From NCBI GenBank assembly GCA_020631485.1, contig JAHDHC010000003.1, positions 10,792 through 74,791 of the forward strand: DNA of 64,000 bases, given 5' to 3'. The notes below the pieces were generated by a model, which was not told where the DNA came from, searched no databases, and saw only the letters and a list, made by a program, of their open reading frames with translations. The DNA comes from Candidatus Altimarinota bacterium (GTDB lineage Bacteria > Patescibacteriota > Gracilibacteria > BD1-5 > UBA6164). The translations under genes and the position numbers were made by a program. Of the stretch, positions 1 through 64,000 are shown piece after piece (position 1 is the first letter of the stretch; every line of letters starts with the position of its first letter).

Positions 1-406
1 CAAGAGCTGATATAATAAGGCCATCTATAGATATTCACTGAATCAGGAGGAGTCAAAAAAAGACAAAGGACTGCAATAAAACAATTAACAATATGGTAGC
101 TGAAAAACCAAAGAATTTTCCCAATATGAAATCTGCTCTTTTCAGTGGCTTACTGAGAATCAGAAAAATCGTTTTTCACTCTATTTCATTGAACAAGAGC
201 TGACTCCCAACAAAAAGAACTCCTAAGAGTCAAAAGATCTCAATCATAGCAAGACCAAAGTCAACTATTACCTTTTCAGAATTTCCCAAAGAAAGAGCTC
301 AGAGAGAAAGACTAAAGAGTATAAATAAAACGGCAAAAATAACGATGAGATACAAGAATTTATTTCTTGTAACTTCTCGAAATGTATTTATAGCGATATT
401 AAGCAT
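1..406 (-). CDS. ABC-2 type transporter permease, N-terminal part (gene runs off the left edge)
   Basis: The ATG at 404-406 overlaps the fmt stop (ATGCTTAA). Table-25 translation MLNIAINTFREVTRNKFLYLIVIFAVLF...ILSKPLKRADFILGKFFGF is hydrophobic and has the SKPxxRxxxxLGK signature of ABC-2/NosY-like permeases. No TAA/TAG in frame down to position 2. Confidence 0.6.
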
Positions 407-1340
407 CTTGAAATACGTATCAAATAAAATCAGGATTTCCTCGAATAAAATCAAGTATATTCATAGCCTTTTTTCATTCAAGTTTTATCTCTTGAAGAAC
501 AAGTATTTTTTTGTCAGCACATACAACTCATATTTTATCTTCATTGAATTTTAGAACTTCTCATACTTTCACTCACTCATTTCATATATCTACATGACAG
601 CGGAGAATATCTAATTTTTTTCAATTGAAAAAACCATATATTCAGGGCCATCCATAATACGCTCTGTAGTAGTTATAAATACTCTCAGCTGATGTGTTAA
701 AATCAATCAATCAATCTGATTTTGTGATCTTGTGACAGTATGTAGCGTTTAAATCATCTTGTGCTTTTGCTTCAATACTATTTGTTAGAAGTCCTTCTAT
801 CGTTTTTTGAAGAAGTGCTGGTCAAATCTGTTGAAACTTCTCAAAGACATCTTTTTGGGTCATGTCAGGATCGAGGTCTATTACATGTTTTAAAAGCATG
901 TCTCACTCATCCATTCACTCTGACATATGCATCGTTGTAAGGCCTGTCTGTGTGTCCCCGTTTTTGAGAGCAGCCTGAACTGGACTTGCTCCTCTATATA
1001 AAGGAAGAAGGCTTCCATGAAGATTTATACAGGCATGTTTCGGGATATCTAAAATACGCTTGGGAATAATTTTCCCATATGCTACTACGACGAAAAAATC
1101 TATATCACTACGTGCAGAGGCAATTGTCGTGTCATTCTTAAGAGATGAGGGCTGAAGTACAGGAATGTTCTTTTCCTCAGCGAGCATCTTGAGTGCTGTT
1201 TTTTTGAGCTCTTTTTTACGTCCCACGTACTTATCTTCCTGAGATACAACAAAGCTGCACTCAAGGCCTTTGTATTCTAGAAGTCAACGCAAGACTTCTG
1301 CACTAAAGTCAGCTGTTCAAAAATATGCTATTTTTATCAT
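399..1340 (-). CDS. fmt: methionyl-tRNA formyltransferase
   Basis: MIKIAYFGTADFSAEVL...[65 protein letters not shown]... These are classic Fmt motifs (HxSLLPxxRG). 313 aa once in-frame TGAs are read as Gly. Stop TAA at 399-401. Confidence 0.9.
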
Positions 1341-1381
1341 TGTGGAATCTGTCTTTTACGTATTAATATCTGTTTGTTTGA

Positions 1382-2446: not shown

Positions 2447-2464
2447 ATATAGTATGGTATGTAC

Positions 2465-3709: not shown

Positions 3710-3899
3710 AGATTTAGGGTGTTTAGGTGTATAAAAATAAATAGGTTATTAAAAATTTATTTTTTCTAAACGATGAGCATATATTCGTATTTATAATTCA
3801 TAATCACATAGCTAGGGATAATGTGTATACTATATCTTTTTTACAAAGACTTTCTAGTATATTGTACTAAATTTTGTTAAAAAAATGTGCGTTTCTTTT

Positions 3900-5192: not shown

Positions 5193-5538
5193 ATATTTTC
5201 ATGTTATAAATTGTCTCCGTATTTTTCAACAAGTATTATTATATTTCCTCAGTGTAAAAAACAAGTCAATAATTTTTTATATTTTACATCGAAAATATGT
5301 TAAAAAAAAATATTGGGTTCTAGACTTGCTGAAAAATGAGTTTTTAAATTTTTCATTTTATTACAAAATCTCATCTTCCCTTCATAAAGGGATTATAGCT
5401 TTTTTACATGCTTTACTATTACTACTACTATTTAATTAAATTAAATATATATATTTATAACTACAAGGAGATTTCAAATATTTGTTTGTTTGAAAAGTAT
5501 ATGATATACTTATGTCATATACTTCGTTATAAATTATT

Positions 5539-5850: not shown

Positions 5851-5854
5851 AACT

Positions 5855-12713: not shown

Positions 12714-15554
12714 ATGTCAGAATATTTGGAAGTGTTTGGGGCAAAGACTCACAACCTGAAAAACATCGATGTAAAAATTCCAAAAAATAAGATCACCGTC
12801 ATAACTGGTGTTTCAGGTTCAGGAAAATCGTCTCTGGCATTTAACACTATCTACTCTATCGGACAGCAAAAATACCTTGAGAGTCTTTCAAGCTATGCCC
12901 GTATGTTTATAGGATGAATGCAAGAGGAAGCAGAGGTAGGAGAGATAATAGGACTCTCTCCTACTATCTCTATAGATCAAAAGACGACTTCAAAAAATCC
13001 ACGTTCGACCGTAGGGACTATAACGGAGATTTTCGATTATTATAAGCTCTTATATCTCAACGTCTGAGAAAGAAGGTGTATAAAATGTTGAACTGTTGTG
13101 AAAAAAGATTCTATCGGTTCAGTTATTACATATCTTTCTACAAAAGAAGCAGGCGCTAAGTTTCTTGTAAAATCCCCTGTTACTGAAAAATATGAAAATT
13201 TTGAGCTATTGAAAAAAGATATTTTAGAGTCATGATTCATCAGGTTTTCTATAGGTGGAACTATCTATACCGTAAATGATGATATAGAAGTTACGGATCT
13301 TTCTCAGATAGACATAGTTGTAGACAGACTTCTGATAAAAGACTACTCAGACGATGCTTCTCCTGATACAAAGAGGCTTAAAGACAGTTTAGAACTTGCT
13401 TTTAAACAGTCATGAGGGATTCTTAAAATAGAGATGCTCGACGATGAAGAACATCAATTTTCCAATGTATTTGTCTGTTCAGCGTGTGGACATGTGCCTG
13501 AAAAACTCAACATATCAAGTTTTTCCTTTAATTCTCACCAATGAGCTTGCCCAAGTTGTCATGGTCTTTGAGTTAAAAAAGTATTTTTAGAAGAAAATAT
13601 TATAAATCCTAAACTTACTCTTTTAGAGTGAGCAGTAACTGCTCCGTGATTTTGAGGAGACTATTTTTTCTCACAAATAGAAAAGGTATGACGAGAAAAC
13701 GATATTTCCCTCAATACTGTCTATAGCAAACTCACACAACGAGAGAAAGATATAGTTTTATATTGAACTGGGAAAAAGGTATACAAGATAAGTTATAAAA
13801 ACGATTCAGGTATTCAAAATACCTATAATTCTCGCTTTGAAGGAGTTATCAATACCCTTTCTAGAAGGTATTTTGAATGAGGCGCAGAAAAATGACATTA
13901 TGACGATTATGTAGTAGATGTTGAATGTCCAGATTGTCATTGAAAACGTTTAAAAGAAGAGTCACTTTCTGTGTATCTCAATGATAAAGATATATGAGAT
14001 CTTGCGAGTCTTTCGGTTGAAAAAGCTCTTGATTTTCTCAGGACACTCGAGTTTAATCAAGCGGAAGCTAAGATTGTTCAAAAGGTTTTGAAAAATGCTA
14101 TTGAAAGACTCGATTTTCTTGCAGGTGTATGACTCAATTACATGACTATTTCTCGTAGAGCTGGGACACTCTCTGGATGAGAAGCACAGAGAATACGACT
14201 CGCGACGCAAATAGGGACAAAGCTTGAGTGAATTATATATGTTCTAGATGAGCCATCCATAGGTCTTCATGCAAGAGACAACAATATGCTTATAGACAAT
14301 CTTAAAAAACTCAGAGATATCTGAAATACGCTTATCATAGTAGAGCATGATGAAGATATCATGAAAAATGCTGATCATATAATAGACATATGACCATGAG
14401 CCTGAATTCACTGAGGGACACTTATTTCAGAGTGAACACTTACACATATCATCGATGATCCAAAGTCAGTGACAGGTCCCTATCTCAGTCATACGAGGCA
14501 AGTTCTTACAGAAAAATGATCAAGACCATCATTTAAGGATCTCAAAAAAAATAAAAAAGTTATAGAGATACTCTGAGCAGAAGAAAATAATCTTAAAAAA
14601 GTTGATATTACTATTCCCCTTTCAAATCTCGTAGTTGTTACCTGAGTCTCATGATCATGAAAGTCAAGTCTCGTAAATGAGATTCTCTCTAACTATCTTG
14701 CAAACTCTTTAAACAGGGCCAAAAGAAGTGTTGGGAAATTTGAGAGTATCAAGTGACTGGAAAATCTTGATAAAGCTGTAATTATCGATCAGTCTCCTAT
14801 AGGAAAGACTCCACGTTCTAACCCAGCAACCTATACATGAGTCCTCACTCACATACGTGAAGTATTTTCTATGACAGAGGAAGCACAGATTCGTTGATAT
14901 GCTCCATGAAGGTTTAGTTTCAATACTCGTCAAGGAAGATGTGAAGAGTGTGATGGTGATGGAGTAAAAAAGATAGAAATGCATTTTCTCCCACCGGTAT
15001 ATGTCGAGTGTGAGTGATGTAAATGAAAAAGATACAACAAAGAAACACTCCAGATAAAGTACAAGTGAAAAAATATTTCCGATGTACTCAATATGACAGT
15101 AGAAGAATGTCTTGATTTTTTCGCAAATCATCCAAAAATTGTCAAAGTCCTCAAAACTATAGAAAATGTATGACTTGGCTATATCAAATTGTGACAATCA
15201 AGTACTACCCTTTCAGGTTGAGAAGCCCAGAGAGTGAAGCTCTCAACTGAACTTTCTAAAAGGTCTACAGGAAAAACCTTTTACATCCTTGATGAGCCAA
15301 CAACCTGACTTCATTTTCAAGATGTTGACAGACTCTTGAAGATTCTCCATTCACTTGTAGACTCTGGAAACTCTGTACTTGTTATAGAGCACAATATGGA
15401 TGTCATAGTAAACGCGGATTACATAATAGACATGTGACCAGAATGAGGAGACAAATGATGACAACTCATGGCAACCTGAACCGTTCAAGATATCTCCAAA
15501 GAAAAAAACAGCTTCACCTGAGAAGCTATCAGGGATTATATGAGTAAGTTCTAA
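12714..15554 (+). CDS. uvrA: excinuclease ABC subunit A
   Basis: [43 protein letters not shown] at the N-term. The second Walker [10 protein letters not shown] (14643-14669), uses three TGA codons for Gly. [13 protein letters not shown]-type signatures. 946 aa. Stop TAA at 15552-15554. Confidence 0.95.
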
Positions 15555-15560: not shown

Positions 15561-16442
15561 ATGCATTTCTTACAAAAAAATATCGACATATCTCAGTATT
15601 CAAATTTTAAAACGCCTGCGAGGGCTGAGTATTTTTTTGAGTTAGAAGATGAATCTCATGTAGAGAGACTCAAGGAAATATATGACTATGCTGAGGAAGA
15701 ATGACTCAAGATTCTCATAATCGGAGGAGGGACGAATATGCTTTTTGCCTTTGATGAGTATAAGTGAATAGTTATAAAAAATAGTCTATGATGATGGACA
15801 TATGATAAATCAACACAGACTCTTGAGAGCTATTCAAATGAGCATATCCGGGAAATAGCCCAGAGTCTAGAACTTGACTATGGACAAAATCTCTGGCATA
15901 GATTTATAGGTCTTCCCGGAAGTATTTGATGAGCGCTTTTTTGAAATGCCTGATGTTTTGGCTTAGAGATAGAAAACAATTTTTTAGAAGTAGAAGCTCT
16001 AGATCTAAAATCATGAGAAAAGAAAACATTGAAAAAACAAGATATGAATTTTTCCTATAGGTCTTCTCGACTCAAAGAGGAAGATGGACAATGGTTTATT
16101 ATAAAGATAAAATTTGATCTCAGTAAAAAAATTGAGAAATACCACTCTGATGTAGACAATATTGACTTCAGAGAAAATAAGCAACCAAAGTGAAATAGTT
16201 GTGGAAGCTTTTTTAAAAATCCAAATAGGGAGCAGTCAGCTGGGGCTCTTATAGAAGCTGTTTGACTCAAATGATTTCAGTATTGAGGAGCCTTTTTTTC
16301 TGAAAAACACGCAAATTTTCTGATGCATGAAGGAGCAGGAAAATGGCAAGATCTTGTCTATCTCATTGAGCTTGCACAAAAAAAGGTAAAAGAAGAATTT
16401 CAGCTTGATTTAGTGAATGAAGTTCGTATCATTCGCAACTAA
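15561..16442 (+). CDS. murB: UDP-N-acetylenolpyruvoylglucosamine reductase
   Basis: YSNFKTPARAEYFFEL...LKILIIGGGTNMLF...GLPGSIGGALFGNAGCFG...NSCGSFFKNP...SAGALIEAVGLKG. Frame checked line by line. 293 aa. Confidence 0.88.
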
Positions 16443-19502: not shown

Positions 19503-19566
19503 TTTTTTTTGTTATGTTCTGTTTTAAAAGTATTATACATTTCATTGATAATTGGCAAGAATTTAT

Positions 19567-22224
19567 ATGAAAAAAATACAGGAATTTGTCGCTCTGGATT
19601 TAGAGACAACTTGACTTGATGCAAAGAAAGACAAGATTATTGAAATAGCAATTGTGAAGTTTGATATAGAAAGCTTCGAAATCATAGATGAGTATGCAAC
19701 TATTGTAGATCCAGAAATCCCTATTCCCAGTCTCAACTCAAGTATTACTTGAATTTTTGATGCTGATGTTCGTGAAGCTCCAAAATGGAGAGAAATACTT
19801 TTAGAAGTATCAGAGTTTATAGGAGATTCTCCAATAGTGTGACATAATGTGTTTTTTGATATAGGCTTCTTATTGGAAAAATGAGTTTCAATAGAAGATA
19901 ATATGGTCCTTGATACGTTTTTGATCGCAAATTTCCTCGTCTTGTGAGAAAAATCGCTGAGTTTAGAGTATTTGTGTAAATATTTTGAGATAGATCTACT
20001 CTGAGCTCATAGAGCTTTAAATGATACAAAAGCAAGCATTAAGCTTCTTGAGGTCCTCATAAAAAAGATACTTAAACTTCCAAAATATAAACAAGATATT
20101 TTTTGATATGTACTCGAAAAATCTACAGATTCATGAATGAACTATATAGCAAAGCATATACTTCCAAATCAAGATTCAACAATCTCAAAAGATGATTTTT
20201 TGAAACTTTTTGAGAAATGTATTCCCAAGTTTCCAAAAAAAATAAAGATAGAAACAGTATCATCAAAGAGTGATTTTGCTTTTTCAGAATATATTAACAA
20301 AGAGAGCTTAAAAGAAAAGCGTGTGAATCAAGAAAAGATGTGAAATATTGTCTACACGACTATGAAAGACCAAAAATTTTCCGTGGTAGATGCTCCTACT
20401 TGAATAGGAAAAACATATGCCTATTTGATTCCGAGCGTATTTCATTCTATACATTCATGAGAGCAAGTTTTTGTCTCTACTACTACTAAAACACTACAAG
20501 ATCAAATCTTTTATAAAGATTTAGAGTCACTTCAAAATGAATCATGAATGAAGTTTAGTTATGCAAAACTCAAATGAAAGCGAAACTATATATCTATAGC
20601 GAGTTTTGTTCACTTTTTTGAGAGTGATGAGCATTATTCTCTTCAAAAGACAAGTTTTCTCTTAAAAATACTTATGTGGATGTCTTTCACTGCACATTGA
20701 GAGCTTGATGAACTCGAGTACTATGGACAAGAATTTTCTTTCTTATACGAGATTAACGCAGATGATTTATACACTTTTTCAAAGGAAAATGTCTACCTAG
20801 ACAGCGAATTTGCTGTCCAGGCACGAAGACAATCAAGAAAGGCGAACATAGTAGTTATAAACAACAACATACTTTTTCAAGATTTGGATCAGGAAGGAGC
20901 GATTCTCTCAAAAGTAGAAAATCTCGTACTAGATGAGGCACATAATCTTGAAGATGTGCTGACACAATCGCTTCAGAAATCATTTTGTCTAGAAGATCTT
21001 GAAAAAAGTTTCTGAAGACTGGAAAAGAAACTCCTTTCAGAAAAGCAGTGAATTCCACAGCTTTCCCTTATTCAAGAAAAGATACTTTTTGAACTTGCTC
21101 TAGTGTTTGATATGTGTCGCGACTATCTATATCAGAAAGTTTCAGCAAGCTCAAAATATAAAACAAGTCTCTTAAAAAAAGATTTTTTCCAATGAGTATG
21201 ACAAAAAATACAAAAATGACAAAACTCTCAAAAAATCCAAATCTTATTTATAGAGTATTTTGACCTTTTACAGTCTCTTGATGATAAAGTATATAATCTT
21301 ATCTCTCGAGAAATCGCACATTTAGAATTGTGTCTCGATGTATTGTCTGTGTGTTTATATGAGTCGTCATCTGAGAATTACATTTGTTATACGCAAGAAT
21401 CATGATCAAAATGAATAGTGCTTGAATATACGCTTTTGCATCCATGAGTGTATTTGAAAAAACACTTATGGACAAAGTTGTCTAGTTGTCTTCTCACTAG
21501 TGCTACCATTAAAATATGAGAGAGTTTTGAATACATTCAAAATATGCTCTGCCTTGAAAACTTTGACCTTTATTCTCTCAAAACGGATTTTGATTATAAA
21601 AAGCAAGCTTTATTATTTGTGCCAAATGATATAGGGAGTATCAAAAACAATGAAATTGCTATTATACAATTCCTGTGAGATTTTATGAAAATAGTAGGAG
21701 GGAAGACACTTTTTCTCTGTACCTCATTTCATATGATACAACAAGTATTTTCATGACTTGAAAGAGACTTACACAAAGAAGGTATTTCGATGTATGCTCA
21801 ATCAATTGGGTGATGAAAAAAGAAACTGATAGATGCATTCGAAGAACATGCAGAAAATTCTCTTTTAGTAGGAACAAATACATTTTGGGAATGAGTAGAT
21901 ATTCCCTGAGAGAAGCTCCAGTATCTTATAATTCATAAAATCCCATTTATGGTTCCAACTGATCCAATATTTCAAGCAAGAGCAGCGCTATTTGATGATC
22001 AATTTCAAGACTATGCTATTCCAAAAGCAGTACTAAAACTCAAGCAATGATTCTGAAGATTGATCCGTAAAAAAGATGATTCATGAATCGTAGTATTTCT
22101 TGATGATAGAATTTATTCTACATGATGGGGACAAGAGATATATGGGGCTTTTCCTACTGATATGAAAAAGAAGATCGCGAGTTCTGAGAATTTTTTCTCA
22201 ATTTTGAAAAACTTTAAGAAATAA
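19567..22224 (+). CDS. dinG: DinG-type ATP-dependent helicase fused to an N-terminal DnaQ-like 3'-5' exonuclease domain
   Basis: N-term FVALDLETTGLD...IVGHNVFFDIGFL...AHRALNDT (exo I-III). Helicase APTGIGKTYAYLIP (Walker A, first Gly is TGA at 20401-20403), LVLDEAHNL (DEAH box), C-term FWEGVDIPG. Whole frame checked. 885 aa. Confidence 0.85.
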
Positions 22225-24580: not shown

Positions 24581-25846
24581 ATGAAATACAAAGAGGTAGT
24601 TGAACAACTGAAGGATCTCATATACACATGAGATAATATACAAAAAGTATGTGATTATATCATCCTTTGAGCGGTATTATGAGGAGCATCAGATATACAT
24701 ATAGAGCCACTCAGTTCCTATGTACGTTTGAGATATAGAATAGATGGTGATTTGAAAGGTATTTTAGAATATCAACCATTTCTTCACCAAGGAATCGTTG
24801 CCCGTTTTAAGATATTATCAGATTTAAAAATTGATGAATCCCGTATCCCACAAGATGGGAGAATTAGTCAAACGATTGATAAAAAATCTCTTGATCTCAG
24901 AGTTTCTACACTCCCAACAGTACATGGAGAAAAGATTGTTATGAGAATAGTAGACAAGTCTAAGAAAATCCCAGAATTATGAACCTTGTGAATAGAGTGA
25001 AAAAATAAGCGCTTAGTTCTCTCTGCTATTGAACTCCCAAATGGTATTATATTGACAAGTGGACCGACAGGATCATGAAAATCAACGACACTTTATTCTG
25101 CTCTCACGCTCATGAATAAGATTGATATAAATATAATGACTCTTGAAGATCCAGTAGAAAATCAGGTTGATGGGATCAATCAGTCTCAAGTAAAACCAGA
25201 TATTTGATATACCTTTGCATATGGTATTAGAACCGCTCTTAGACAGGATCCAGATATTATTATGGTATGAGAAATGAGAGATAAAGAAACAGTAGATATT
25301 GCAATCGAAGCATCATTGACATGACACTTAGTATTGTCTACTATCCATACAAACTCTGCGGCTGAGACGATTACAAGACTCTTAAACATGTGAGTACAGC
25401 CATTTTTGCTTCCAGCAACTATGAATATCGTAATAGCTCAAAGATTGATAAAGCGTCTATGTTCGTGTAAAAAACCTATCCCATTAAAGGATTTGTGAAA
25501 AGAGGCTATCAAAAATGTCACAAATGCTATCAAGCTCACTCCACGTGAAGAACTTGCCGAAAGAGTTGCAGATAAACTTAAAAATCCTGTTTTTTATGAA
25601 CCAGGATGATGTGAGAAATGTGAGAATACTGGATATAAATGAAGACTTGGTTTATATGAAGTACTTGAAATTACTCCATGAGTAAAAGATATGATATTAA
25701 ATAACCAGTCAGCTTTTAACATAAACAGAGAAGCGATTAAAGAGTGAATGATTTCATTAGAACAAGATGGTATACTCAAAGCGCTCAACGGTGATACTTC
25801 ACTCGAAGAAGTATATTCAGCTGCAAAAACACAAAGTGAAACATAA
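24581..25846 (+). CDS. pilB: type IV pilus assembly ATPase (GspE/PilB family), short form without N-terminal GSPII domains
   Basis: ASDIHIEP, RLRYRIDG, Walker A GPTGSGKSTT (third Gly is TGA at 25076-25078), DPDIIMVGEMRD, TGHLVLSTIHTN, tetracysteine CSCKK...CEKCENTGYKGR. 421 aa. Confidence 0.92.
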
Positions 25847-28502: not shown

Positions 28503-28534
28503 TCATTATTTTTATTTCTTAAATATTGTTTCAA

Positions 28535-31500
28535 ATGAACGTATTTAAAAAGATCGTTGCTGGTGCATCTATCTTCGCTGTTGCTGTAGTTTCTACTGCT
28601 TCAGGAGTTAGTGCATACACGAACGCTCAACTAGATGCAGCCAATGGGCTTGCATGAATGGGGATCATCGTTGATCACTCAAACGATCCAATGGCTTACA
28701 ACATGGATCAAACCGTTTTGAGACAAGAAATCGCTGCAGTTGCAAGAGGTGTCTACGAAGTAGACAACTCTATGGCAGTAAATGCTGCAAAAGCAGATTC
28801 TTGTACAAACGCGTTTGCTGACGTATCAGCTACAAACCCAAATACTTGGGCTTGTTATACAGTTGAAGGATTATTAAACAATAACCTTATTGCTGCTAAC
28901 CCTAACTTTAGACCAGAAGAAAACATCACGAAAAGTGAAGCTCTCGGTATGGTTGTAAAAGCTGCTTGTGGAAATGATTATTCATATGATCCATCAGCTA
29001 CAGGTACTTGGCAAGCACAACTTGGAATGTATGCTACTGCAAAAGGTATTGCTACATTCTCAGACTATAATACTGCTGCTACAAGAGGATTTACTTTTGA
29101 AGCTGCTGTAAATGCTATGAATGCTTGTGGAGATTCATCAGATGATACTGATAGTCTTCTCGATGATCTATTAAATGATCTTGGAGGTGACAGTAGTACT
29201 GATACAGGAACTGGAACTACAGGAACTGGAACTACTACAGGAACTGGAACTACAGGTACTACTCCTACTACTCCTGTTGTTACAGGTGGTACTCTTGAAG
29301 TAATGCTTTCTCCAGATACTCCAGCTTCTGCTACTATTCCAGGAGGAGTTAATGGTCTTCCAGTTGCTTCTTTTGATTTCACTGCTGGTGATTCAGATGT
29401 TACTATTTCACAAGTTACAGTAAAAAGAACAGGGCTATCTGATAGCGCAACTATTGAATATATTGCTGCATTTACTGAATTAGGAAGAGCTTCTAATCAA
29501 AAAAATGACAACCAAGAGAACAATACTGAAGCTCAACTAAACCTTTCAGGAGGATGAGTAGTTGTTCAGGCAGGTCAAACAAGAACAATTACCTTTGTTG
29601 TTGATATTCCTTGTGTAAATGGTACTGGTTGTGATCCTACAGTTGAATCAGATGAATTTGCACTCGAACTTGTTGAAGTACAAGCTTCTGCTACTGTTAA
29701 TGCAGTATGAGGACTTGAGGCAAATCTTATGAGAGTAGGTTCTGTAGATGCTCCTGAAATTACTATCAACACAGGTGGAGGATCTCCTGATCCAAAAATT
29801 GGTGAAGAAGGAGCTGAAATATTTGAGTTTGAAATAGATGGTTCTAACAACGAAGATGTTATTCTTAAAGCTATTACATTCGAAGGAAATGGAAACGCTG
29901 AAGATGATCTCATGAACTTCGAACTATACTATGAAAATACTCTTGTAGCTACTACTGCATCTATGAACGATGATTACCTTACTTTCAACCTTGGAAACGG
30001 AGTAACTATCGAAGAAGATAAAACAGAAGATTTTACAGTAAGAGCTGACGTTATTGAGGGTGCTGGTGATACTATCCAATTTAAGATAGACGCTGCACTT
30101 GACGTAACTGCACAGTCAACATCATTTGGATATGGAGCTGCTGTTGATATCAGCAACGTAACTGGATCAAACAACTTTGGTTCTATTACTATCGAAGCTG
30201 GTGAGCTTACTCTCGTAGAAGTTGAACCAGAATTTGACGAAATTAGAGAAGACAAAGACAACATTACTCTTGGTGGAGTAAAAATTACTAACGTAGCTGG
30301 ACAAAACCTAGAATTACAAGAATTTGGTGTAAAAATTACTATGGACCCAAATACTGCAATGGTTGGATCTAATCCAGCTGTACCTGCTACTGTATTTGAA
30401 GATGTAGAACTATACTCTGAAGACACAGGTTCATCATATGAACTTTCTTCTACGAGTACTGGTCTTTCTGCAGTATACTCTGATACTGGTATAGATGTTA
30501 TCATACCACAAGGTACGACTGAATGGTCTATAAGAGCAGATACTGTTGAAGATATAACTGATTTTGATAATGTTAGATTTACTCTCTCTTTCGTTACTGG
30601 AAGTGTAGGTGCTAACGGTGGTTTTTATGTAGAAGAAACTGAAGATAATACTCCAGTTACTGATATAACTCCAAGTTCAATAACTTTCAACTCTATTGAT
30701 GGTTCTGAATCAGGAGTACAAGTATCACTTACTCCACTTGCTGATACTGATGTAGTAAGAGGTGCTGATGAAGTAGTTGCTCTTCAATTCGAAGTAGAAG
30801 CTGAAGAAACAAGTGATGTTGTTATTGATGAAGTTACTGTAAAAGTTGCTTCTGCTACAGCAGCTAGTGGTGTTGCTTCTAACCAAGAAGTAGCTGAAGT
30901 TAAACTTTACCAAGGATCTGTTGCTCCAGGTAACCTCCTTGATTCTGAATCTGGTTCAAACATTAACACTACTTCTGGAGAAGTAAGTTTTGATGATATG
31001 GGTGAAATTATGATTGACGCGAACACTACTGAAACATTTGTAGTAGTTGTATCTTTCGTAGATAGCACAGATGCTGTAACAAATAGTGACTATGTTGTTT
31101 CACTTACTGGACTTGATGTTGAAGATGATGAAAATGATACTATTACAGTTACAAACCTTCCACTTGTTTCTGCAAGAGATATAACTGTAAACAACGCTGG
31201 TACTATTATTCAACTTGCATTTGACGCTGCAAACGCTGATAACGAGTTTAATAAACAAGGACTTGCTGGTGATAACATTGTTATTGCATCTTACGACGTA
31301 AGAGCTGATAATGAAGAGGTTGATGTTGAAACAGTTACATTTACAATCGCTGGTGCAACTAATCTTGCTGATGCTGTTGTAAACGCAACTCTTCTTCTTG
31401 ATGGAGTAGCACTAGAGACTAACTCTAACTCTGATATTACAGGTTCTACAATTGTATTTGATGACCTTACAAACCTTATCATTCCTACTACTACTTCTGA

Positions 31501-32107
31501 ACTAGCTTTGAGACTTAACACTGCAAACATCGGTGACGGATTTGTATGAGTTGCTCAAACTGGACTTACAGTTTCTAACGTAGTACTTTCAGATGCTGAG
31601 GGTGTTGATTCAGGAAAAAACCTTGCTGTTGCTGATATAGCTGCACAAACTGGTGGATCTTCTAAAACACTTGATATCGTAAGTGCTATAGTTACTCCTG
31701 CTGTTACTGACGAATTTGGAACTGATGACTCAACTGCTGAGCTTAGACTTGTTGTTGACGGTGGAATCAATACAGATTCAACTGGTAACTCTGTACAAGC
31801 TGAACTTACAGGTCTTACATTCGAAGTAACAACTGTTACAGGAACTGTTCCTGCTACAATTACTGTATTAAACTCTAATGATGTAGTTGTAGGTAGTAAC
31901 AACTTCAGTGCCGCTGGTACTGTTACAGTAGCTGTTTCTTCTGATTCAATCGGGAACGATGACGAAACATATACTATAGAAACTACAGGTGAAGCTATCT
32001 TCAGATTAACAAGTAACGGTGTTGCTTATACAATCAATGGAGGAGGTTCATTTACTACTCAACTTGATAATAACCTAGACCTTGGTCAAAATGCTAACTC
32101 TAACTAA
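28535..32107 (+). CDS. S-layer-type cell-surface protein (1190 aa): signal peptide, SLH-like region, Thr/Gly linker, many beta-sandwich-like repeats
   Basis: MNVFKKIVAGASIFAVAVVSTASGVSA signal peptide. FADVSATNPNTWACYTVEGLLNNNLIAANPNFRPEENITKSEALGMVVKAA fits the SLH consensus (F.DV...WA....L...gii.g...F.P...iT..EA). Linker DTGTGTTGTGTTTGTGTTGTTPTTPVV. Repeated modules of the type ...FEIDGSNNEDVILKAITFEGNG.... Strongly biased GCT/ACT/GGT/GTA codon use. Only 4 in-frame TGA. Followed by tandem terminators. Confidence 0.8.
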
Positions 32108-33879: not shown

Positions 33880-36024
33880 ATGAGTAAAAAAACACCACTC
33901 AATATGGTGAGAAATATCGGTATCATTGCCCACATTGATGCGGGTAAAACGACGACAACAGAGCGTATATTGTATTATACAGGGAAGATTCATAAGATTT
34001 GAGAAACTCATGATGGTGAAGGAACAATGGACTGGATGGATCAAGAAAAAGAAAGAGGTATTACTATTACTTCAGCAGCTACAACAGCTTTTTGGAAAGA
34101 TCACCAAATCAATATTATTGATACTCCAGGGCACGTTGATTTTACTATAGAGGTTGAAAGATCACTCAGAGTTCTTGATGGGGGAGTTGCAGTATTTGAT
34201 GGGTCACAATGAGTAGAACCACAATCAGAAACAGTATGGAAACAAGCAGATAAGTACAGTGTACCAAGAATCTGTTTTGTAAACAAGATGGATAAAATGG
34301 GTTGAGACTTTGACATGTCAGTAGACACTATCAAAAAAAGACTTGCTGGAAACAAAGTAGTTGCGATTCAATATCCAATAGGTGCATCAGAAACATTTGA
34401 GGGTATTGTTGATATCATCGAAATGAAAGCCTATCACTTTGAAGGAGACAGTTGAGAAAAAGTAACAGAAATCGATATCCCAGCTGATATCAAAGATAAG
34501 TGTGAAGCGCTAAGACTTGAGCTCATGGAAAAAGTAGCAGAGCAAGATGAAGCACTCATGGAAAAATATTTTGAAGAATGAGAGCTATCAGTAGACGAGA
34601 TCAAAAAAGGACTCAGAGCGTGAGTATGTAAGAACGAACTCTATGCTGTAACATGTGGATCAGCACTTCAAAATATATGAGTACAGATGGTAATAGATGC
34701 TGCTGTAGATTTTCTTCCTTCTCCAGTAGATGTAAACGAATGAAATCTCACAGTTAAGGATGAAAATACAAAAGAAGAACTCAAAACATTTCAAATAGGT
34801 GATGATACATCACTCGCTGCTATTGCTTTTAAAGTAGCAACTGATCCATTTGTCTGAAAATTGATATTTACAAGAGTATATTCTGGTACTTTGAAAGCTG
34901 GATCATATGTGTATAACGCAACTTCAGGGAAAAAAGAAAGAGTTTGAAGACTCCTACAAATGCACTCAAACTCAAGAGAAGAAATCCAAGAAATTTCTAC
35001 ATGATGTATTGGGGCTATAGTTGGTCTTAAAGATACAAAGACATGAGATACTCTCTGTGATATGAATGATAAATTTCTCGTAGAATCAATAGAGTTTCCA
35101 GAGCCTGTTATTTCTATCTCAGTTGAACCAAAAACAAAAGCTGATCAAGAAAAAATGTGAGTTGCCCTCAATAAACTCGCAGAAGAAGATCCGAGTTTTA
35201 GAGTAAGATCAGACGAAGAAACAGGACAAACGATCATATCAGGTATGGGAGAACTCCACCTTGATATTATTGTTGATAGAATGAAACGTGAATTCTCAGT
35301 TGAGTGTAATGTATGAAATCCACAGGTTGCCTACAGAGAGACGATTAAAAATACTGCAACAGATGTAGAACATAAGTATTCAAAGCAATCAGGTTGAAGA
35401 TGACAATATGGACATGTAGTTGTCACTTTTGAGCCGTATACGTTTATGGACGAGGAGGACGAAAAAGCTGAACTCGCCGAGAAACCTACAAACAAGTTTG
35501 TAAATAAGATTACAGGATGAGTTATCCCAAAAGAATATATCCCTGGTGTAGAAAAAGGACTGAATGAAGCATACAAAAGATGATTTGTGGCATGATACCA
35601 AATGGTTGATATCAAAGCAACACTTACATTTGGTTCATTCCATGATGTTGATTCTTCTGAATTGGCCTTCAAAATAGCTGCTTCAAAAGCATTTCAAGAA
35701 GCTTGTAAAAAAGCTCAAGCTACTATACTTGAACCAATCATGAAAGTAGAGGTAAATACTCCAGAAGAGTATATGGGTGATATAATAGGACAGATCAATT
35801 CAAAAAGAGGAAGAATCGAAGAAATGGGACAAAGATGAATGGCAAAAATTGTAAATGCATTTGTACCACTATCTGAGATGTTTGGATACTCTACAGAACT
35901 TAGATCTGCGTCTCAATGAAGAGCAACATACGCGATGGAATTTGATCACTACAGTGATGTGCCTTCAAATATAGCAACACAAATACGTGAAGAAAGAGGT
36001 TTTGTACTCCCAGATGACGAATAA
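33880..36024 (+). CDS. fusA: translation elongation factor G
   Basis: [36 protein letters not shown] (the Gly of KIGE is TGA at 34000-34002), [44 protein letters not shown]. 714 aa. Stop TAA at 36022-36024. Confidence 0.97.
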
Positions 36025-52791: not shown

Positions 52792-52865
52792 TGGTGTTCC
52801 CAGCTGGAATTGAACCAGCGTCTACCCCTTAGGAGGGGGTTATTCTTCCACTGAACTATGAGAAC
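52792..52865 (-). tRNA. tRNA-Arg (anticodon CCT), CCA encoded
   Basis: GTTCTCATAGTTCAGTGGAAGAATAACCCCCTCCTAAGGGGTAGACGCTGGTTCAATTCCAGCTGGGAACACCA. Anticodon stem ACCCC/GGGGT, loop CTCCTAA. Confidence 0.85.
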
Positions 52866-53890: not shown

Positions 53891-55870
53891 ATGAAAACAG
53901 AAATATATAAAAAACTCAAAGCCGCATACCCAGATCTTCGTTTTTTTGCACAAGCCGATCTGATGCAATACTTTCCTGAATTACTGAATGAACTCCTTGA
54001 AAAAGAAAAAGACTATTTTAGTGCTCTTTTAGAAACAAAGAATAGTGATATTTGTTTTGAAACTTTTGATTATAGATCTGAGCTCTCATATTTTTTTGGA
54101 ATAATTGAACATATCAACTCAGTTCACTGATCAGACATATCTAGAAAAATTATCCAAGATTTTGAGCCTGAATATATGAAGTTTTCAAATGAACTTGCTT
54201 ATTCAAAGAGATATTATGAGATGCTCAAAATCTGTCAAGAGACGGACTCTCTTGATACTGAACAGTCAAAGATCATTTCCGATGCGATCGAAGCATATGA
54301 ACTCCGTTGAATCCACCTTGAAGAAATAGAACAGAGCCGTTTAAAGAAAATAAACGAAGATATTTCAGAGCTACGTCGCATGTTTTCTGTAAATGCACTA
54401 AAAAGTGAGGAGGCACTTTCTTGTCATATAAAAGATACTGAAGTTATACATGAAATGCCAGAAGCACAGAGGAAATCAGCAAAATTAGCAGCAGAAGATA
54501 GGGATCTTGATGGTTATTATTTTTGATCTTCAATCTCAGAATTTATAAACTTGATGAAATATTGTTCCGATTCTCAGATAAGAAAAAAAATATCACAAGA
54601 GCGTAATAGTGTTGCATCAAACTGAGAATATGATAATAGGGATATTATTTTTAAGATATTATCACTCAAGAAAGAAAAGGCTCAGATATTGTGATACAAA
54701 AATTACGCAGAGCTATCACTTCAAACAAAAATGGCTCAAGATCCTGAGCAAGTTCTTGATATGCTTGATAAGATATCCCAGAGAGCAAGACAAAAAACCG
54801 AGAAAGAAATAGAAACTCTAAAACAGTATTTCAAACTTGATGCTCTGGAGGCTTGGGATACCAGTTATTATTTCAGAAAGTACAAAGAAGAAATATATGA
54901 TTTCGATGAAGCAGAACTCAAAAAGTATTTTGAGTATGAAAAAGTACTCTCAGGAATGTTTACAATTATGCAGAAACTCTATGACTTTGAAGTAAAAAAA
55001 ATAGAGAGTTCTCAAATATACGGTAAGCAGATAGATTATTATGAAATACACAAAGGCTGAGAACTTCTCAGTTATTTTATGGTTGATCCATATTATTCTC
55101 CTGAAAAACGTTCAGGTGCGTGGGCAAATATGATTCAAGAAAGAGACTCAGCTCATACTCCTTTTGTCGTGAATGTTTATAATATCAAAAAAGAAGCTTC
55201 GTGACCAACACTTCTCACAATGGGGGAGGTGGAAACGATGTTTCATGAGTTTTGACATGCGATGCATGCGATATTTTCGAGTTCAAAGTATAGTGAACTG
55301 AATTGATTTCAAGTAGAACGGGATTTTGTAGAACTTCCTTCTCAGTTCCATGAACATTATTGTCGTGAGAGAGAGTGATTAAAACTATTTGCAAAGCACG
55401 TAGATTCTTGAGCATCTATCCCTGAGGAACACCTAGCGACACTTGAGTCTATCGAGCACATGAGTTCAGGAAATATGACTTTGTGACAGTGTGTGTATGC
55501 CTCACTTGACATGAAATTGCATAGTATAGATCAAATACGAGATATTGCTCATATGGATGAACTCATCCTCTGACTGGTAAATGAAATTTCGTATTTTAAA
55601 AAAGAGGATGAATATAAGATGTATTGTGCCTTTTCACATATATTTGATGGTGGATACGCTGCATGATATTATAGCTACATGTGGTCAGAAATACTAGAGC
55701 TTGATATTTGGTCGAGATATAAAAAAGAATGAATTTTTTCTGATATTAGTAATGAGTTTTACAATACGATACTCTCACAATGATCAAAGAAAAAGGCGCA
55801 GGACTTGTTTTATGATTTTATGAAAAGAGATATATCGCTTGATGGTTTTTTTGCATACAAGCAACTCTAA
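53891..55870 (+). CDS. M3 family oligopeptidase (oligopeptidase A / dipeptidyl carboxypeptidase-like)
   Basis: Zinc site TMFHEFGHAMHAIF (HExxH). VELPSQFHEHY and FDGGYAAGYYSYMWSEIL blocks typical of M3A peptidases. In frame with track ORFs 53891.. and 54731... 659 aa. Confidence 0.9.
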
Positions 55871-56202: not shown

Positions 56203-56203
56203 C

Positions 56204-58036
56204 TTATTCTACTGTTACACTCTTAGCGAGATTTTGAGGTTTGTCTATATCTTTTCAGAGTTTTTTTGCAACTCATACGGCAAAAAGCCATGCAGGTACC
56301 AGTGAGCTAAAAGGAGAGAGTTGATCATGTGTTTCTTCAAGCGTTATAACATGATCGTAGATATCTTGGTGTTTGCTATTTTCATATACTATTCCTACAA
56401 CAGGAGATTTTCTTGCTTTTATCTCTTTGACGTTTGAGATCGTTTTTTCGTATATGTAGCTTGTAGCTCCAAATACAAAACAAGGGAAATCAGGTCCTAC
56501 AAGTGCGAGTGGTCAGTGCTTCAGTTCTCAGGTTGCATATGCTTCACTATGTAAATAGCTGAGCTCTTTGAGCTTGAGACTTGCTTCTTGTGCGGTTCCA
56601 TTAAGGAGTCCTCTTCCTAAGAAAAAGAAGTTTGAAAACTGAGAATATTTGTCGATAACATCTTTTAGCTTCTCTTGGTTTTCTAGCTGTCTTTGAATAA
56701 GTGCTGGGAGTTTCTCAAGTGCCTCAATGAGTTCTTTTGTTTCAGATCTTTGAAGATCTTTTTTTATACCGAGGCTTATACTTATCATAAGTAATACTGC
56801 AAGTTGTGCTATGACATTTTTTGTAGAAGCGACTCATACTTCTACTCATGCATGTGTATACATTCACGCGTCACACATCCTAGCTATAGTTGAACCAACG
56901 GTATTTACAACTCAAAAAGTATGACATCATTTCTCTTGTACTCTTTTCACTGATTCGCGTACATCAGCTGTTTCTCATGATTGAGACATAAAGATATACA
57001 AGACATCATTTTTTGGTATAAAGGTATTGTATAAGAACTCACTACTTACATGTACGCAGGCATCAATTCAAGCTATTGATTGGAGCCAGTTAACTCATAC
57101 TTGTCAAGCAAAATAGCTCGATCAACTTGCGATAATCTCCACTTTTGCATAATTTGATTCAGAAAGCTGTTCGAGAGTTTCGCTTGTAATAGTCTTTTCA
57201 GAAAAATTAATCCTTCCCGTACAAACATTTTTGAGAATCTCTGGGATTTCGTGAATCTCTTTTTCTGTAAAAGTCTCAAAGTCTCATTTGTCTGCTATAC
57301 AAAAATCCTCATCTACTTTTTCTATGTCTTTTTTTACATAGTCTCAATCACTGGTGCTAAAGATCTTGTAGTTAAGTGTATCTATTTTTATTATTTCTCT
57401 ATCATCGAGACTCACAAACTCAGGCGCATATTTTGATACAGTATTTATGTCACTTGAAATAATTAAACCATCTTCTGCGATTCAGAGTATCATAGGACTT
57501 CCGAGTTTCATTCCATATATTTCTTGTGGTTTTTGTGTATCGATAACGACGATTGAGTACGCTCCTACGATTTTTTTTGCAGCTATTTCAAGAGTTTCAA
57601 GCATATTTCCGTTGAAGCAGTCTTCGATCAATTTTATAAGTACTTCACTATCTGTATCACTATAAAAACTGTATCACTTTTTTATAAGATATTCTTTTAT
57701 ACCCAGATAATTCTCTATTATACCATTATGAACGAGATAAAATTGACTATTTTGAGATACGTGAGGATGAGTATTTTCTAGAGTTACTTCTCCGTGAGTA
57801 GCCCACCTTGTATGAGCAATTCCTCGTGCATATGTTTGAGTCGACTCAATTTCTTCTTCGATTTTGCGTGTTAAAACACTGACTTTTCCAACTGCTTTTT
57901 CTAAAAATATATCATCGGTACTATTGATAGCTACAAGTCCTGCACTATCATATCATCTATATTCAAGACTTTGAAGTCCTTCGAGTAATAGAGGAATAGC
58001 ATTTTGCTTCCCTGAATATGCAAAAATTCAACACAT
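56204..58036 (-). CDS. glmS: glutamine--fructose-6-phosphate aminotransferase
   Basis: MCGIFAY N-terminus (Gly3 is TGA, 58028-58030), RGYDSAGL, HTRWATHG, SIS domains SQSGETADV and [41 protein letters not shown], C-terminal KSVTVE. 610 aa. Confidence 0.95.
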
Positions 58037-58165
58037 ATATCCGTATTAAAAAATATTGAATGTATAGTATGATTTTGAAAACATGAGTCAATAAGCTTGA
58101 AGAAAAAGTGTTTTTTTCTTTTCCTTATAAATATGATCCTAAAGACCTAAAAAGAAGTGAAGATT

Positions 58166-58942: not shown

Positions 58943-59052
58943 GGGGAAATATTTTTACAGTATATAAATGTGGGATTTTTGACTATTTTTTTTCAATGTG
59001 CTATTCTATAGTTTAGTATAGTGTTTTTAACTATTATTGTACAAAATCATAT

Positions 59053-59727: not shown

Positions 59728-59842
59728 GACAGACATTCTAGAGCCTGCACACAGCAAATAAAAGATAGATGATCGGTTTTTTTACTTTATTTTATATTTG
59801 TGATAGTGTATATAAAAGTACATATTTTTATAAAAAATTATT

Positions 59843-62800
59843 ATGCAAATAAGGAGCCATACAAAGATAGTATCAAGTATTTTATTTTTAAGTTTCATAT
59901 TTCAGATATCAGGAATAACCTACGCGAGTGATCTTCAGGATCAAGAGGATGTGAGGACGAGAGTATTGCAACTACAACAAGTAGATGCTAATCTTCCGTG
60001 AGGAGTAGCTGAGCAGAAGTGAAAAGTTGGGACAATACTTGCAAAGCTTTTTGACGCTAATGGAAAGGTGAAACAGATATTTTTACATGAGATATTTGAT
60101 GGTCTTACATGATGAGAGTTGGTATACTACGATGATGCGAACAAGAGATTTATGAGTTCTGTTATCCGAGGAACGAATAGTGCGGTATGAATCTGAGGTT
60201 GAATACTCGCGTCATACATAGCGAATTTTACCTGAGATGTAAACATCACATGAGATCTTGATGTGGGTGGAAATATTACGGCTTCAGCACCAACTGCGAA
60301 TAACCATGTAGCGACGAAAGACTATGTAGATTCTAACTCTGGACTTTGGACAAGAAATGGCTCAAATGCGGTATATAACTATTCAGCAACAGATAGAACC
60401 ACAGTATGAGTATGAATAAATCACAATGTAAATACAACAGGATGATGGGCGAGAGAACTAAGCTTCTCAAGCAATGGAGGAAAAAGAGGAGTACTCTGAG
60501 CCTATGGATGAAATAATACCCTTAGTTATGTGTATCTCGATTCAAGATGAGGAACAGCTTCTTACAGTAACGCTCAATTTGTCCTTAGGCCTAGTGGGAA
60601 TGTCGGTATAGGAAATACCGCACCAGACACCAAACTTGAAGTAGCAGATGCAGTGAAGATCTCAGGAAATGGAGATGCGACACTCATCCTCGAAGCAGAT
60701 CAAGATAACGTAACAGAAACGGATAATCCAAGTATAGCATTTATCCAAGATGCATGAGGAGTAAACGGAAGAATCTGATATAGATCTGGGACAAATCAAA
60801 TGGAACTCATGAATCAGTTTAATGATAGTCTTCATCTTGGTACAGCAAATAATACCAGAATGACTATTGGTTGAGATGGAAATGTAGGTATTGGAATGAC
60901 GAATCCGTGAGAGAGATTGAGTGTTTCTTGAAGAATCGCGGTAAGTACAGATCCAAACTCAGATGATGATATTGGTGACAGATGATATAACGACGGACGT
61001 TATGTAAACGTCTGAGAAGCTGTAAACGGTGACACTATCACAGATGGGACAATTGATAGTTCAGAGATCCAAGATAATACTCTTACGTCAAGTGATCTCG
61101 CAAATGGATCTGTAAACTCAGCTGAAATAGTTGATGGATCAGTAAGAACTCAAGAAATACGTGATGGTACTATTACAAATACTGACATCAATAGTTCCGC
61201 AGGAATTTCTGGTACAAAAATCAATCCTGATTTTTGAACTCAGTCAATCGTAGCGAGAAACCCAAATAACTCTAATGCCTCAGCTGCATTAAATTTCGAT
61301 TGAGATGTTGCAAGAATAAGAGTATGAGGTTCAGGAGTTTGAGCTTCAAATTGACTTGATATCCAATGACCTGGTAATTCGAGTTTATTAAGAATAGAAA
61401 ATAATGGAAATCTTACTACTTGATGAACCATCCAAGCAGCAGCTCCTACGACATGAAATCATGTAACTACAAAAAGTTATGTTGATAATTTGGTACAGGG
61501 ACTTGTATGGAAAGAACCATCAGCAACAAGTGCATCAGGAACGCATGGAACTTGTACCAGTGCAAAAGAATGATGGGCTACATATAATAGAGCAGACAAT
61601 GTCATCTATGTATGTAATGGAAGTTGATGGGTAAATATCTGAACAACAGCAGCAATTCCCTACGCAACAACTACGACTGCATGAAGGATTCAGTTGAGTG
61701 GAGTATTATGAGGAACTTGGAACAACATCACACTTGATGATAACTCAATCAACAGTGAGAAAGTTCAAAACAATACGCTCACAGCAAGTGATCTTGCGAC
61801 AAATAGTGTCGGAACAAGTGAGATCGTAAATAATACGATTACAGAAACAGATATATCAGACAGTTTTGTAGCGAGAAATTCTCAGCTCCTTGATGGGATT
61901 GACAGTTCAAATTTTGTGAGAGATTCATGAAATGAAACAATAGGATGAGTGAAGACATTTTCAGAAAGTACAATTATATCTAAAAATGGTACTTCATGTT
62001 CTGGATCAAACTGTGTTACCAATTCTGCTTGAATAGCTCTAAAAGATGCATCAAATAATCAAAACGTAGAAATAGTTCATGATGTCTTTGATTCTTCACT
62101 TCCTGCTGCAGGATATGGTGTAAGAATTAGAAAAACAACTGATAACGTTCAGCAGTGAAATAACGCTATGCTTGTTGTTGAGTGAGACATATATGCCAAC
62201 AACACATCAAGAGTACTTACTAGTTGATTTAGTGGTGATGACATCCAAGACAATACCGTAGATTCTTCTGAAATCCAGGACAATACACTCACAGCAAATG
62301 ATCTTGCAAATGGATCAGTAAACTCAGCTGAGATCGTAGATGGTTCAGTTAGAACTCAAGAAATAGCAAATAATACGATTACAGAAACGGATATATCAGA
62401 CAGTTTTGTAGCGAGAAACTCACAACTCCTTGATGGAAGAGATTCAACGGAATTCGCCCAGAGAGATAATACTTCAAGCACATCTATTGGAGCTGCAGGA
62501 TGGTATACGATAGCGAGAATTCCGAGCGGAAGAGCAAGTGCAAAATTCGTAATCAGAGATACAACAAGTGGAAGACATGGAACAGTACACTTTTATGCGC
62601 AACACCACTATGGAAACGGAAATGTCATCAATGTCGTAGCAGATTCAAACTATGGAGGAAATGGTATTTTTAGATATTTGAGAATAAAAGACGCTTCTAC
62701 CTATGATGGTGCAGTGCTACAAGTATATGTAGATCAAGCAGGTTCTGTATATGGACAGATGTTTGAAAATATTCAATGACCAGGTTGGACGATTGTAGAT

Positions 62801-64000
62801 TGGGCAGCTGATGGAGCACAGACGGCTCCAAGTGAAGGATCACTCAGTGAAGCTGTGAGAATTGATCTCGATCACAATAATGGTTTCCAAACAACTGACT
62901 CACTCAATGCAAATAGTGGAATCAAGGTTGATGGAACGACTATCATAAATGGTAGTGGGAACATCGGAGGAGATGTTATCACAGATGGAACCATAGACAG
63001 TTCAGAGATCCAAGATAATACTCTCACAGCATCTGATCTTGCGGCTAATTCGGTAGGAACTTCAGAAGTTGCTAACAATTCCCTTACAGCAAATGATCTC
63101 GCGGCAAACTCTGTTTGAACTTCAGAAGTTGCTGATAATACTCTCACAGCAAATGATCTTGCGGCGAACTCTGTAGGAAACAGTGAACTTATAGACGTGC
63201 CAACTGTTGCACAGCTGAATGTAGTGGCGTGAGATAATAACGGCTTAAGGTTTTGGGGTTCAGACAATTATGAGATATCTATGGGAAATACATCAGAATA
63301 TCATTATTGACCTGTTACATGATATTCTATTAAGAATAAAATGAATAGTGATTCAACGAGATGATGGACCTGGTGAGTTGCTGGCGCTACTCCTACGGTA
63401 GCATTTAATACTCAATGAAACGCTCAGTTTGCAGGAACAATTACTGCTGCGACTCCTACTGCTGCAAACCATCTTGCGACAAAAGCATATGTAGATTCTA
63501 ACTCTGGTCTATGGTCTCAAAACGGATCTGGTGAAGCATACTATACGGCTAATGTAGGTATAGGAAATACGGACCCATGAGAGAGACTTAGTGTTACCGG
63601 AAGGATCTCAGTGACAGCTGATCCAAACAGTAATGATGATATATGAGATAGAGGCTACAACGATGGAAGATATATTAATGTATGAGAATCAGGTGATTCT
63701 ATAGCTGATAATACGATAGATGGTTCTGAGATACAAAATGATAGTATTACAGCAGCTGACCTTGCTGTAAACTCAGTTGGAAATAGTGAATTAATAGATA
63801 CACCAACATTTACGAATATACTTACGGGAAACACATGAATAAACATTATTTGAGGTTCACCAATTATGAGATATACCGATTCTTGAGCAGAGGATGATTT
63901 TTGGACACATGTAAATTCTAATAACTTTTATGTGCTGGCTGATAGAAATGATGATAGTGCTTGGGATGGACCTCATCCACTACAATTAGAAGCAGATACA
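59843..64000 (+). CDS. giant tail-fibre-like repeat surface protein, N-terminal 1385 codons (runs off the right edge)
   Basis: Frame checked 59843-64000 with no TAA/TAG. Signal peptide MQIRSHTKIVSSILFLSFIFQISGITYA. Recurrent modules PTA.NH(V/L)ATK.YVDSNSGLW and GNVGIG.T.PGERLSV.GRI (tail-fibre-type motifs), plus runs of ITDGTIDSSEIQDNTLT.SDLA.GSVNSAEIVDGSV. Confidence 0.75.

Follow-up and report, generated by a model that had tools for sequence, protein, structure and literature searches.

Evidence for UGA as a glycine codon and CGG as a probable tryptophan codon in an uncultured Gracilibacteria bacterium

What do the many TGA triplets mean that lie inside the reading frames of a 64,000-nucleotide stretch of bacterial DNA? 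The stretch (contig C20:10792-74791, called the window below and always meant at its full length) belongs to a 27-contig assembly of 1.21 Mb with a completeness of 93% and a guanine-plus-cytosine (GC) content of about 34%. It is an unremarkable part of the chromosome of an uncultured Gracilibacteria bacterium of the BD1-5 type, within the Patescibacteria or candidate phyla radiation (CPR). An initial annotation, made from the letters of the window, had proposed that UGA is a glycine codon throughout, as in NCBI translation table 25. The explanation that we consider best, with a probability of roughly 96%, is a UGA = glycine code to which the reading of CGG as tryptophan has been added. Taken separately, the assignment of glycine to UGA is nearly certain from the comparisons described below, and the assignment of tryptophan to CGG is very likely.

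Reading frames and the residue at UGA

When TGA is treated as a stop codon, as in table 11, only four open reading frames (ORFs) of at least 150 amino acids (aa) are found in the 64-kb window. In contrast, when TGA is treated as a sense codon, the window (1..64000) resolves into 40 non-overlapping genes that occupy 91.8% of its length and contain 657 in-frame TGAs. Of the 39 complete genes, 31 finish at TAA and 8 at TAG, with no other stop, exactly as the initial annotation had anticipated for genes in which TGA is read as glycine. Its warning that a standard-code annotation would miss the long genes is likewise borne out. It had also described housekeeping genes as falling into pieces of under 100 aa: under table 11, the five genes that it cited break into 17 to 48 fragments each, with median lengths of 15 to 30 aa and longest pieces of 67 to 104 aa.

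Seven TGAs in these five genes had been singled out as invariant glycines, and we find every one of them at its given position, in frame and inside its given motif. The uvrA gene (12714..15554, plus strand, 946 aa) carries 47 in-frame TGAs, three of which (at 14643, 14652 and 14658) occupy the second Walker A motif, T[TGA]VS[TGA]S[TGA]KSS. The fusA gene (33880..36024, plus strand, 714 aa), coding for elongation factor G (EF-G), has 21, including the one at 34000-34002 in HKI[TGA]E, read as HKIGE. A DinG-like helicase gene with an N-terminal exonuclease domain (19552..22224, plus strand, 890 aa) has 33 and a PilB-type ATPase gene (24581..25846, plus strand, 421 aa) has 16; each has one in its Walker A motif, namely APT[TGA]IGKT at 20401-20403 (APTGIGKT) and GPTGS[TGA]KST at 25076-25078 (GPTGSGKST). 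Finally, glmS (56204..58036, minus strand, 610 aa) contains 20, and the TGA at 58028-58030 supplies the glycine of the N-terminal M-C-G-I.

The same pattern extends through the genome. TGA occurs at 19 to 41 per 1000 codons on every one of the 27 contigs, and it is the single most common glycine codon (33.3 per 1000, versus 36.7 for the four GGN codons combined). With TGA counted, glycine makes up a normal 7% of residues; without it, the share is an abnormal 3.7%.

To read the residue at UGA, TGA was masked as X in the alignments, so that no assumed meaning could bias them. Against the best solved structure for UvrA (9gxk_A), the masked positions fall opposite glycine at 38 of 47 sites and opposite tryptophan at none, which resembles the behavior of the GGN codons of the same gene (glycine at 29 of 38). 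A Codetta-like tally took as its reference the regions within 10 kb on either side of fusA in 72 standard-code genomes, whose fusA genes have no in-frame stop. Among strongly conserved TGA columns of a cleaned, genome-wide gene set, glycine was found in 123 of 139 and tryptophan in none, compared with glycine in 117 of 132 columns for the control codon GGA. Columns of this kind within window genes gave glycine in 21 of 25 and again no tryptophan. Otherwise, all 55 codons represented by five or more conserved columns conform to table 11. In codon alignments with seven Gracilibacteria relatives, the partner of TGA is TGA in 48% of cases and GGN in 32%.

These tallies bear directly on a Mycoplasma-type code (table 4), in which UGA would specify tryptophan rather than glycine. 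The reading frames opened by such a code coincide with those of table 25, and the genome resembles those of other lineages in which UGA means tryptophan in its small size and AT richness. Nevertheless, the absence of tryptophan from all 139 conserved columns and all 47 UvrA positions, the pairing of TGA with TGG in the relatives at only 13 of 5020 sites, and the depleted glycine content that this code would leave make it exceedingly improbable. As the initial annotation had asserted, the conserved positions speak for glycine and never for tryptophan.

Another possibility is that in-frame TGAs are real stops, so that the genes would be pseudogenes, products of sequencing error, or subject to selenocysteine insertion or programmed read-through. 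We examined 44 genes for which the alignment extends to the C-terminal end of a standard-code homologue. The ORFs ending in TAA or TAG overshoot the homologue C-termini by a median of only 3 aa, and TGA is present at the expected stop position in none of the 44 genes. Moreover, the first in-frame TGA is encountered at a median of 4.8% of gene length, and yet full-length alignments continue to the homologue C-termini. Because TGA marks no expected stop and appears so early, we conclude that UGA is a sense codon. Given also that the 657 TGAs in 40 genes sit at conserved glycine positions, and that the relatives are alike in this respect, genuine stops are the least probable of the explanations that we considered.

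A technical caution emerged from these comparisons. At least 150 aa of open frame is available under table 25 in 72 places in the window, compared with the 40 real genes, and the excess consists of spurious antisense or off-frame ORFs. Long frames of this type are common under table 25 because only two stop codons remain and the GC content is 34%. They are also conserved among relatives and can mimic codon reassignment. Our first six-frame ORF tallies, which paired CGA with leucine and TGG with arginine, were rejected as artefacts of such conserved frames, since TCG and CCA appear as CGA and TGG, respectively, on the opposite strand; both signals disappeared once a longest-non-overlapping gene set was used. 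A single conserved column placing CGA opposite isoleucine was likewise discarded, as it arose where EF-G paralogues had been aligned with a LepA-like protein.

Transfer RNAs and release factors for UGA

The initial annotation had named, among its checks, a tRNA with a UCA anticodon and the loss of release factor 2 (RF2, encoded by prfB), and both came out in favor of its proposal. ARAGORN finds 35 tRNAs in the genome, and the Rfam tRNA model RF00005 was also run. A tRNA(UCA) gene is located at C17:2827-2905 (minus strand), and its acceptor stem carries G1:C72, C2:G71 and G3:C70 followed by U73. These are glycine identity elements, are the criteria used by Shulgina and Eddy (2021; PMC8629427) for accepting a tRNA(UCA) as a glycine acceptor, and form the same set that is present in tRNA-Gly(UCC) of this genome. 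The gene is kept in 40 of 41 relatives, including all 36 high-quality genomes across three families, and in the 20 relatives from which we read its sequence the identity elements never vary, while changes in the stems are compensatory.

This tRNA further weakens both alternatives introduced above. ARAGORN labels it 'SeC' on the basis of its anticodon, which might be cited in support of selenocysteine insertion at true stop codons. However, its 7-bp acceptor stem and short variable loop are not a selenocysteine tRNA structure, SelA has no match in the genome, and the SelB model reaches only other GTPases below its cut-off. For a tryptophan reading of UGA, the only tRNA-Trp in the genome has the anticodon CCA, with A1:U72 and G73, whereas the tRNA with the UCA anticodon has U73 and the G1-C2-G3 stem.

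The genome contains a single locus for a class-I release factor (C26:25059-26111), which scores 462 bits with the prfA model, above the cut-off, and thus corresponds to release factor 1 (RF1). In the genome search, the prfB model reaches only this RF1 locus, at 268 bits, which is under its cut-off of 370. At 93% completeness, RF2 cannot be called absent in an absolute sense, but nothing substantive speaks against glycine at UGA.

Two further observations concern the tRNA set. tRNA-Gly(UCA), which ARAGORN finds, is not among the hits of RF00005 at E<=0.01, and this tRNA has an unusual D-arm (TAACATAAAAGAGTGAGTGTA); the key tRNA of a UGA = glycine code may thus escape scans that rely on covariance models. 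Separately, the GGN box is served by tRNA-Gly(UCC) alone, with GCC and CCC anticodons absent from the genome's tRNA set, and several other four-codon boxes (alanine, valine and proline) each have a single UNN tRNA. This economy in several boxes implies extensive superwobble.

The codon-residue correspondences, the tRNA genes with their conservation, and the release-factor content are all directly observed, and they are consistent with a simple scheme. Glycyl-tRNA synthetase would charge tRNA(UCA) through the acceptor-stem identity set despite the A36 that comes with its anticodon. RF2, which would otherwise terminate at UGA, appears to be gone, leaving RF1 to terminate at UAA and UAG, and no other glycine codon is now used as often as UGA. 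In vivo decoding is presumed to be unambiguous.

CGG, CGA and the arginine tRNA set

Is table 25 then the complete code of this organism? The proposal of code 25 holds for UGA, but it probably does not describe the whole code, since CGG, which is represented by three codons in the window, is very likely to specify tryptophan. CGG is rare in the genome, at about 0.3-0.4 per 1000 codons. For 399 reciprocal-best orthologues, each codon was set against its counterpart in the closest relative, G001 (whole genome of 1.18 Mb; median identity 55%). Of 21 sites with CGG in this genome, 14 have TGG in the relative and one has an arginine codon. In the reverse direction, CGG codons of the relative lie opposite TGG at 12 of 24 sites and, again, opposite an arginine codon at one. 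Pooling both directions yields 26 CGG-TGG pairs versus two pairs of CGG with an arginine codon.

If plain table 25 applied, UGA = glycine would be the only change, CGG would still specify arginine, and the CGG/TGG pairs would be chance one-base substitutions between arginine and tryptophan. We consider this unlikely, given that TGG accounts for only about 0.7% of codons. The arginine codon AGA provides a baseline, with TGG as its partner at only 10 of 3207 sites, and there is no tryptophan signal for CGA. Individual sites argue in the same direction. A CGG in the PriA gene falls exactly on a conserved tryptophan of E. coli PriA. The site of the CGG in the RF1 gene is aromatic or hydrophobic in 10 standard-code homologues, with phenylalanine in 7 of 10, isoleucine, methionine or leucine in the others, and arginine in none.

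A candidate decoder is also present. The tRNA(CCG) gene at C8:44795-44871 has A1:U72 and G73 like tRNA-Trp, while the three ordinary arginine tRNAs have A73. Of the 41 relatives, 15 have this tRNA, and these belong to one and the same family; its A1:U72 pair, G73, anticodon and unusual T-loop (GGTGCAATTCC) are invariant among them, whereas its stems carry compensatory changes among the 15 genomes.

Several observations weigh against tryptophan and in favor of retained arginine at CGG. First, the D-arm of tRNA(CCG) is unusual and arginine-like, and it probably keeps A20; a tRNA with tryptophan features would be expected to combine G73 with the lack of A20, with A/G1:U72 as a supporting trait. 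Arginyl-tRNA synthetase (ArgRS) also tolerates G73, and for both reasons the identity of this tRNA is ambiguous from its sequence. Second, the two exceptional orthologous pairs match CGG with CGT. Third, about 12 CGG codons reside in arginine-like contexts, within a few genes that are TGA-free, higher in GC and recently imported in appearance. Fourth, one of the CGG sites in the window corresponds to a position that is either tryptophan or arginine in solved homologues. In addition, Codetta gave a '?' for CGG in most BD1-5 genomes.

The fourth of these points concerns an M3 zinc peptidase gene (53891-55870), in which the CGG at aa 477 (55319..55321, plus strand; VE[CGG]DFVELPSQ) probably specifies tryptophan and lies opposite TGG in G001. 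The corresponding residue is tryptophan in solved oligopeptidase A and arginine in Dcp and thimet oligopeptidase. The CGG at aa 97 of a MurB-like gene (15561-16442; codon at 15849..15851, plus strand) is also probably a tryptophan codon and also faces TGG in G001; alignment with MurB structures in the PDB is uninformative at this variable site. The third CGG, at aa 16 of the gene at 3900-5264 (codon at 5217..5219, minus strand), is unaligned in G001 and may precede the true start. On their own, the window sites do not decide between tryptophan and arginine.

Despite these reservations, we favor the reading in which the rare CGG is very probably translated as tryptophan, presumably by the conserved tRNA(CCG), with CGA, CGU, CGC, AGA and AGG remaining arginine codons. 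Tryptophanyl-tRNA synthetase, and not ArgRS, would charge tRNA(CCG), and the loss of tRNA(UCG) may be what permits CGG to mean something other than CGA. Shulgina and Eddy offered the same tRNA(UCG)-loss argument for cases in Firmicutes (PMC8629427).

The arginine tRNAs form an odd set. The genome encodes arginine tRNAs with anticodons GCG, CCU and UCU, together with the odd CCG (ARAGORN and Rfam); the tRNA-Arg(CCU) gene lies within the window (52792..52865, minus strand) and, as a canonical arginine tRNA with A73, serves as a comparison for tRNA(CCG), which lies outside the window. Neither ARAGORN nor RF00005 found a UCG or ACG anticodon in this genome, and ARAGORN found none in G001. Even so, CGA is used at about 2.5-2.8 per 1000 codons, or roughly 1000 codons genome-wide, and in the alignments it behaves as an arginine codon. 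Its partners in G001 are arginine codons in 55% of cases and lysine codons in 16%, like those of CGT, with no tryptophan signal, and the CGA at aa 495 of UvrA (window 14196-14198) falls on an invariant arginine of the UvrA signature. According to the Codetta source table, the low-GC subclade of BD1-5 shows the same missing CGA decoder (PMC8629427).

One tRNA-like gene deserves description in this context. It is located at C14:97657-97747 (minus strand), scores 56 bits with the Rfam tRNA model and is not called as a standard tRNA by ARAGORN. It has an arginine-type D-arm with A20, an A73, no encoded CCA, and an insertion of about 18 nucleotides that lengthens the anticodon arm. When AGGCAATCATTTCTGCTT is removed, the loop becomes ACUCGAC, with the anticodon UCG. 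ARAGORN's intron mode instead proposes a Leu(CAG) tRNA, which we found unconvincing. No full-length homologue of the gene was found in 40 relatives.

A more speculative interpretation is that the genome is caught in an unfinished recoding of its arginine box, wherein CGG has been captured for tryptophan by a tRNA(CCG) that is still partly arginine-like, and CGA is perhaps read by an unconventional decoder. The C14 gene would then be one candidate for that decoder, if its insertion is excised. We hold this interpretation to be doubtful. If it were correct, the CGG codons in arginine contexts of genes imported from standard-code organisms would be mistranslated or ambiguously decoded.

The assignment of CGG to tryptophan has a precedent, in that the pattern has already been published as a Codetta prediction. 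In the source table, two genomes of the low-GC BD1-5 subclade have CGG = tryptophan and the others have '?', and the same subclade lacks tRNA(ACG) and tRNA(UCG), possesses tRNA(GCG) and tRNA(CCG), and has CGA as arginine or '?' (PMC8629427). This layer of the code had rested on a handful of Codetta calls from few columns (PMC8629427). The good orthologue-level support reported here is a modest addition: the 26 CGG/TGG pairs and the conserved tRNA(CCG) family lend modest independent support to a sense-codon reassignment in Gracilibacteria that is in no NCBI table.

UGA avoidance, lineage and known codes

Not all genes use UGA freely. An S-layer-like gene in the window (28526..32107, plus strand, 1193 aa) has 4 TGA versus 105 GGN codons and no CGA or CGG, while its neighbours do not avoid UGA. 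Its G001 orthologue has 1 TGA versus 96 GGN codons, so the avoidance is conserved. Three further native and well-conserved genes are TGA-poor (C11:24168-24951, C16:1387-1828 and C25:20348-20906). This distribution suggests that UGA is selected against where expression is high.

A second class of TGA-poor genes has a different character. Seven genes outside the window, at C18:6130-7276, C18:9469-11323, C18:15888-16398, C6:6223-7039, C11:15618-16686, C16:63-1242 and C19:32385-32967, have 0-1 TGA, GC contents of 0.34-0.48, several CGA or CGG codons and no close orthologue in G001, and they are surrounded by TGA-rich native genes. In those that we inspected, the CGA and CGG codons lie in arginine-like contexts. 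Pfam matches among these genes include a dihydroorotase-type amidohydrolase, an S8 subtilase, an orotidine monophosphate (OMP) decarboxylase and a DapD-like transferase. All seven were probably acquired recently from donors that use the standard code, and any CGG in them would now be misread.

Relatives of fusA place the organism and illustrate how variable UGA usage can be. Among one-genome-per-species GTDB contigs, each of the seven EF-G loci nearest to that of the window (75-82% identity) bears the name Candidatus Gracilibacteria. In-frame TGAs are present in six of these seven orthologues, from 1 to 15 each, and 50 of the 52 lie opposite a glycine of the window EF-G. The exception is the closest EF-G relative (L003, 82% identity), whose fusA lacks any in-frame TGA. 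None of 73 more distant orthologues has an in-frame stop, except for a single one in L035. UGA usage in the highly expressed fusA thus differs strongly among close lineages. The evidence points to a Gracilibacteria lineage of BD1-5-like type, in accord with the earlier placement among CPR bacteria resembling Gracilibacteria or Absconditabacteria; the best EF-G matches are Candidatus Gracilibacteria, and CGA as an arginine codon is unlike Absconditabacterales.

That UGA specifies glycine in Gracilibacteria has been known since 2013, and our finding on this codon is itself ordinary; the practical value of confirming it is correct annotation. A table 11 annotation of the contig is useless, and table 4 would raise tryptophan to about 3.3% of residues. 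Table 25 probably writes arginine in place of tryptophan at 0.3-0.4 per 1000 codons, which amounts to three positions in the window, in addition to the conserved tryptophan of PriA.

How does this code compare with those already described? One close match is table 25, the code of SR1 (Absconditabacteria) and Gracilibacteria with UGA = glycine (Campbell et al., 2013; Rinke et al., 2013; as cited in PMC8629427). The two share UGA at conserved glycines, a tRNA(UCA) with the glycine identity set, the absence of RF2, stops restricted to TAA and TAG, and a low-GC CPR lineage. There is no difference with regard to UGA, but CGG is arginine in table 25, which is probably wrong for this genome.

Another likeness is found in the low-GC subclade of BD1-5 (for example UBA5194 and UBA6489; PMC8629427, Fig. 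4 source data), which has UGA = glycine, CGA = arginine or '?', and CGG = tryptophan. This likeness is one of code pattern. It includes the same tRNA set (GCG and CCG present, ACG and UCG absent), CGA as arginine and CGG as tryptophan, depressed CGN usage, and AGA as the main arginine codon. In contrast, GC content is 0.34 here and 0.21-0.29 in the subclade, and CGA occurs at about 25-28 per 10,000 codons here (all ORFs) versus 0.8-6.7 in the subclade (Pfam-aligned columns), although these two measures are not strictly comparable.

The code of Absconditabacterales (Shulgina and Eddy, 2021) shares UGA = glycine and CGG = tryptophan with this genome. There, however, CGA is also tryptophan, whereas here CGA is arginine-like and tRNA(UCG) is missing. 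Finally, table 4, as used by Mycoplasmatales, Entomoplasmatales and insect endosymbionts, resembles the present case in having UGA as a sense codon, RF2 lost and a small, AT-rich genome. The two differ in the outcome of the reassignment: in those organisms UGA yields tryptophan through a tRNA-Trp(UCA), while here it would yield glycine through a glycine-type tRNA.

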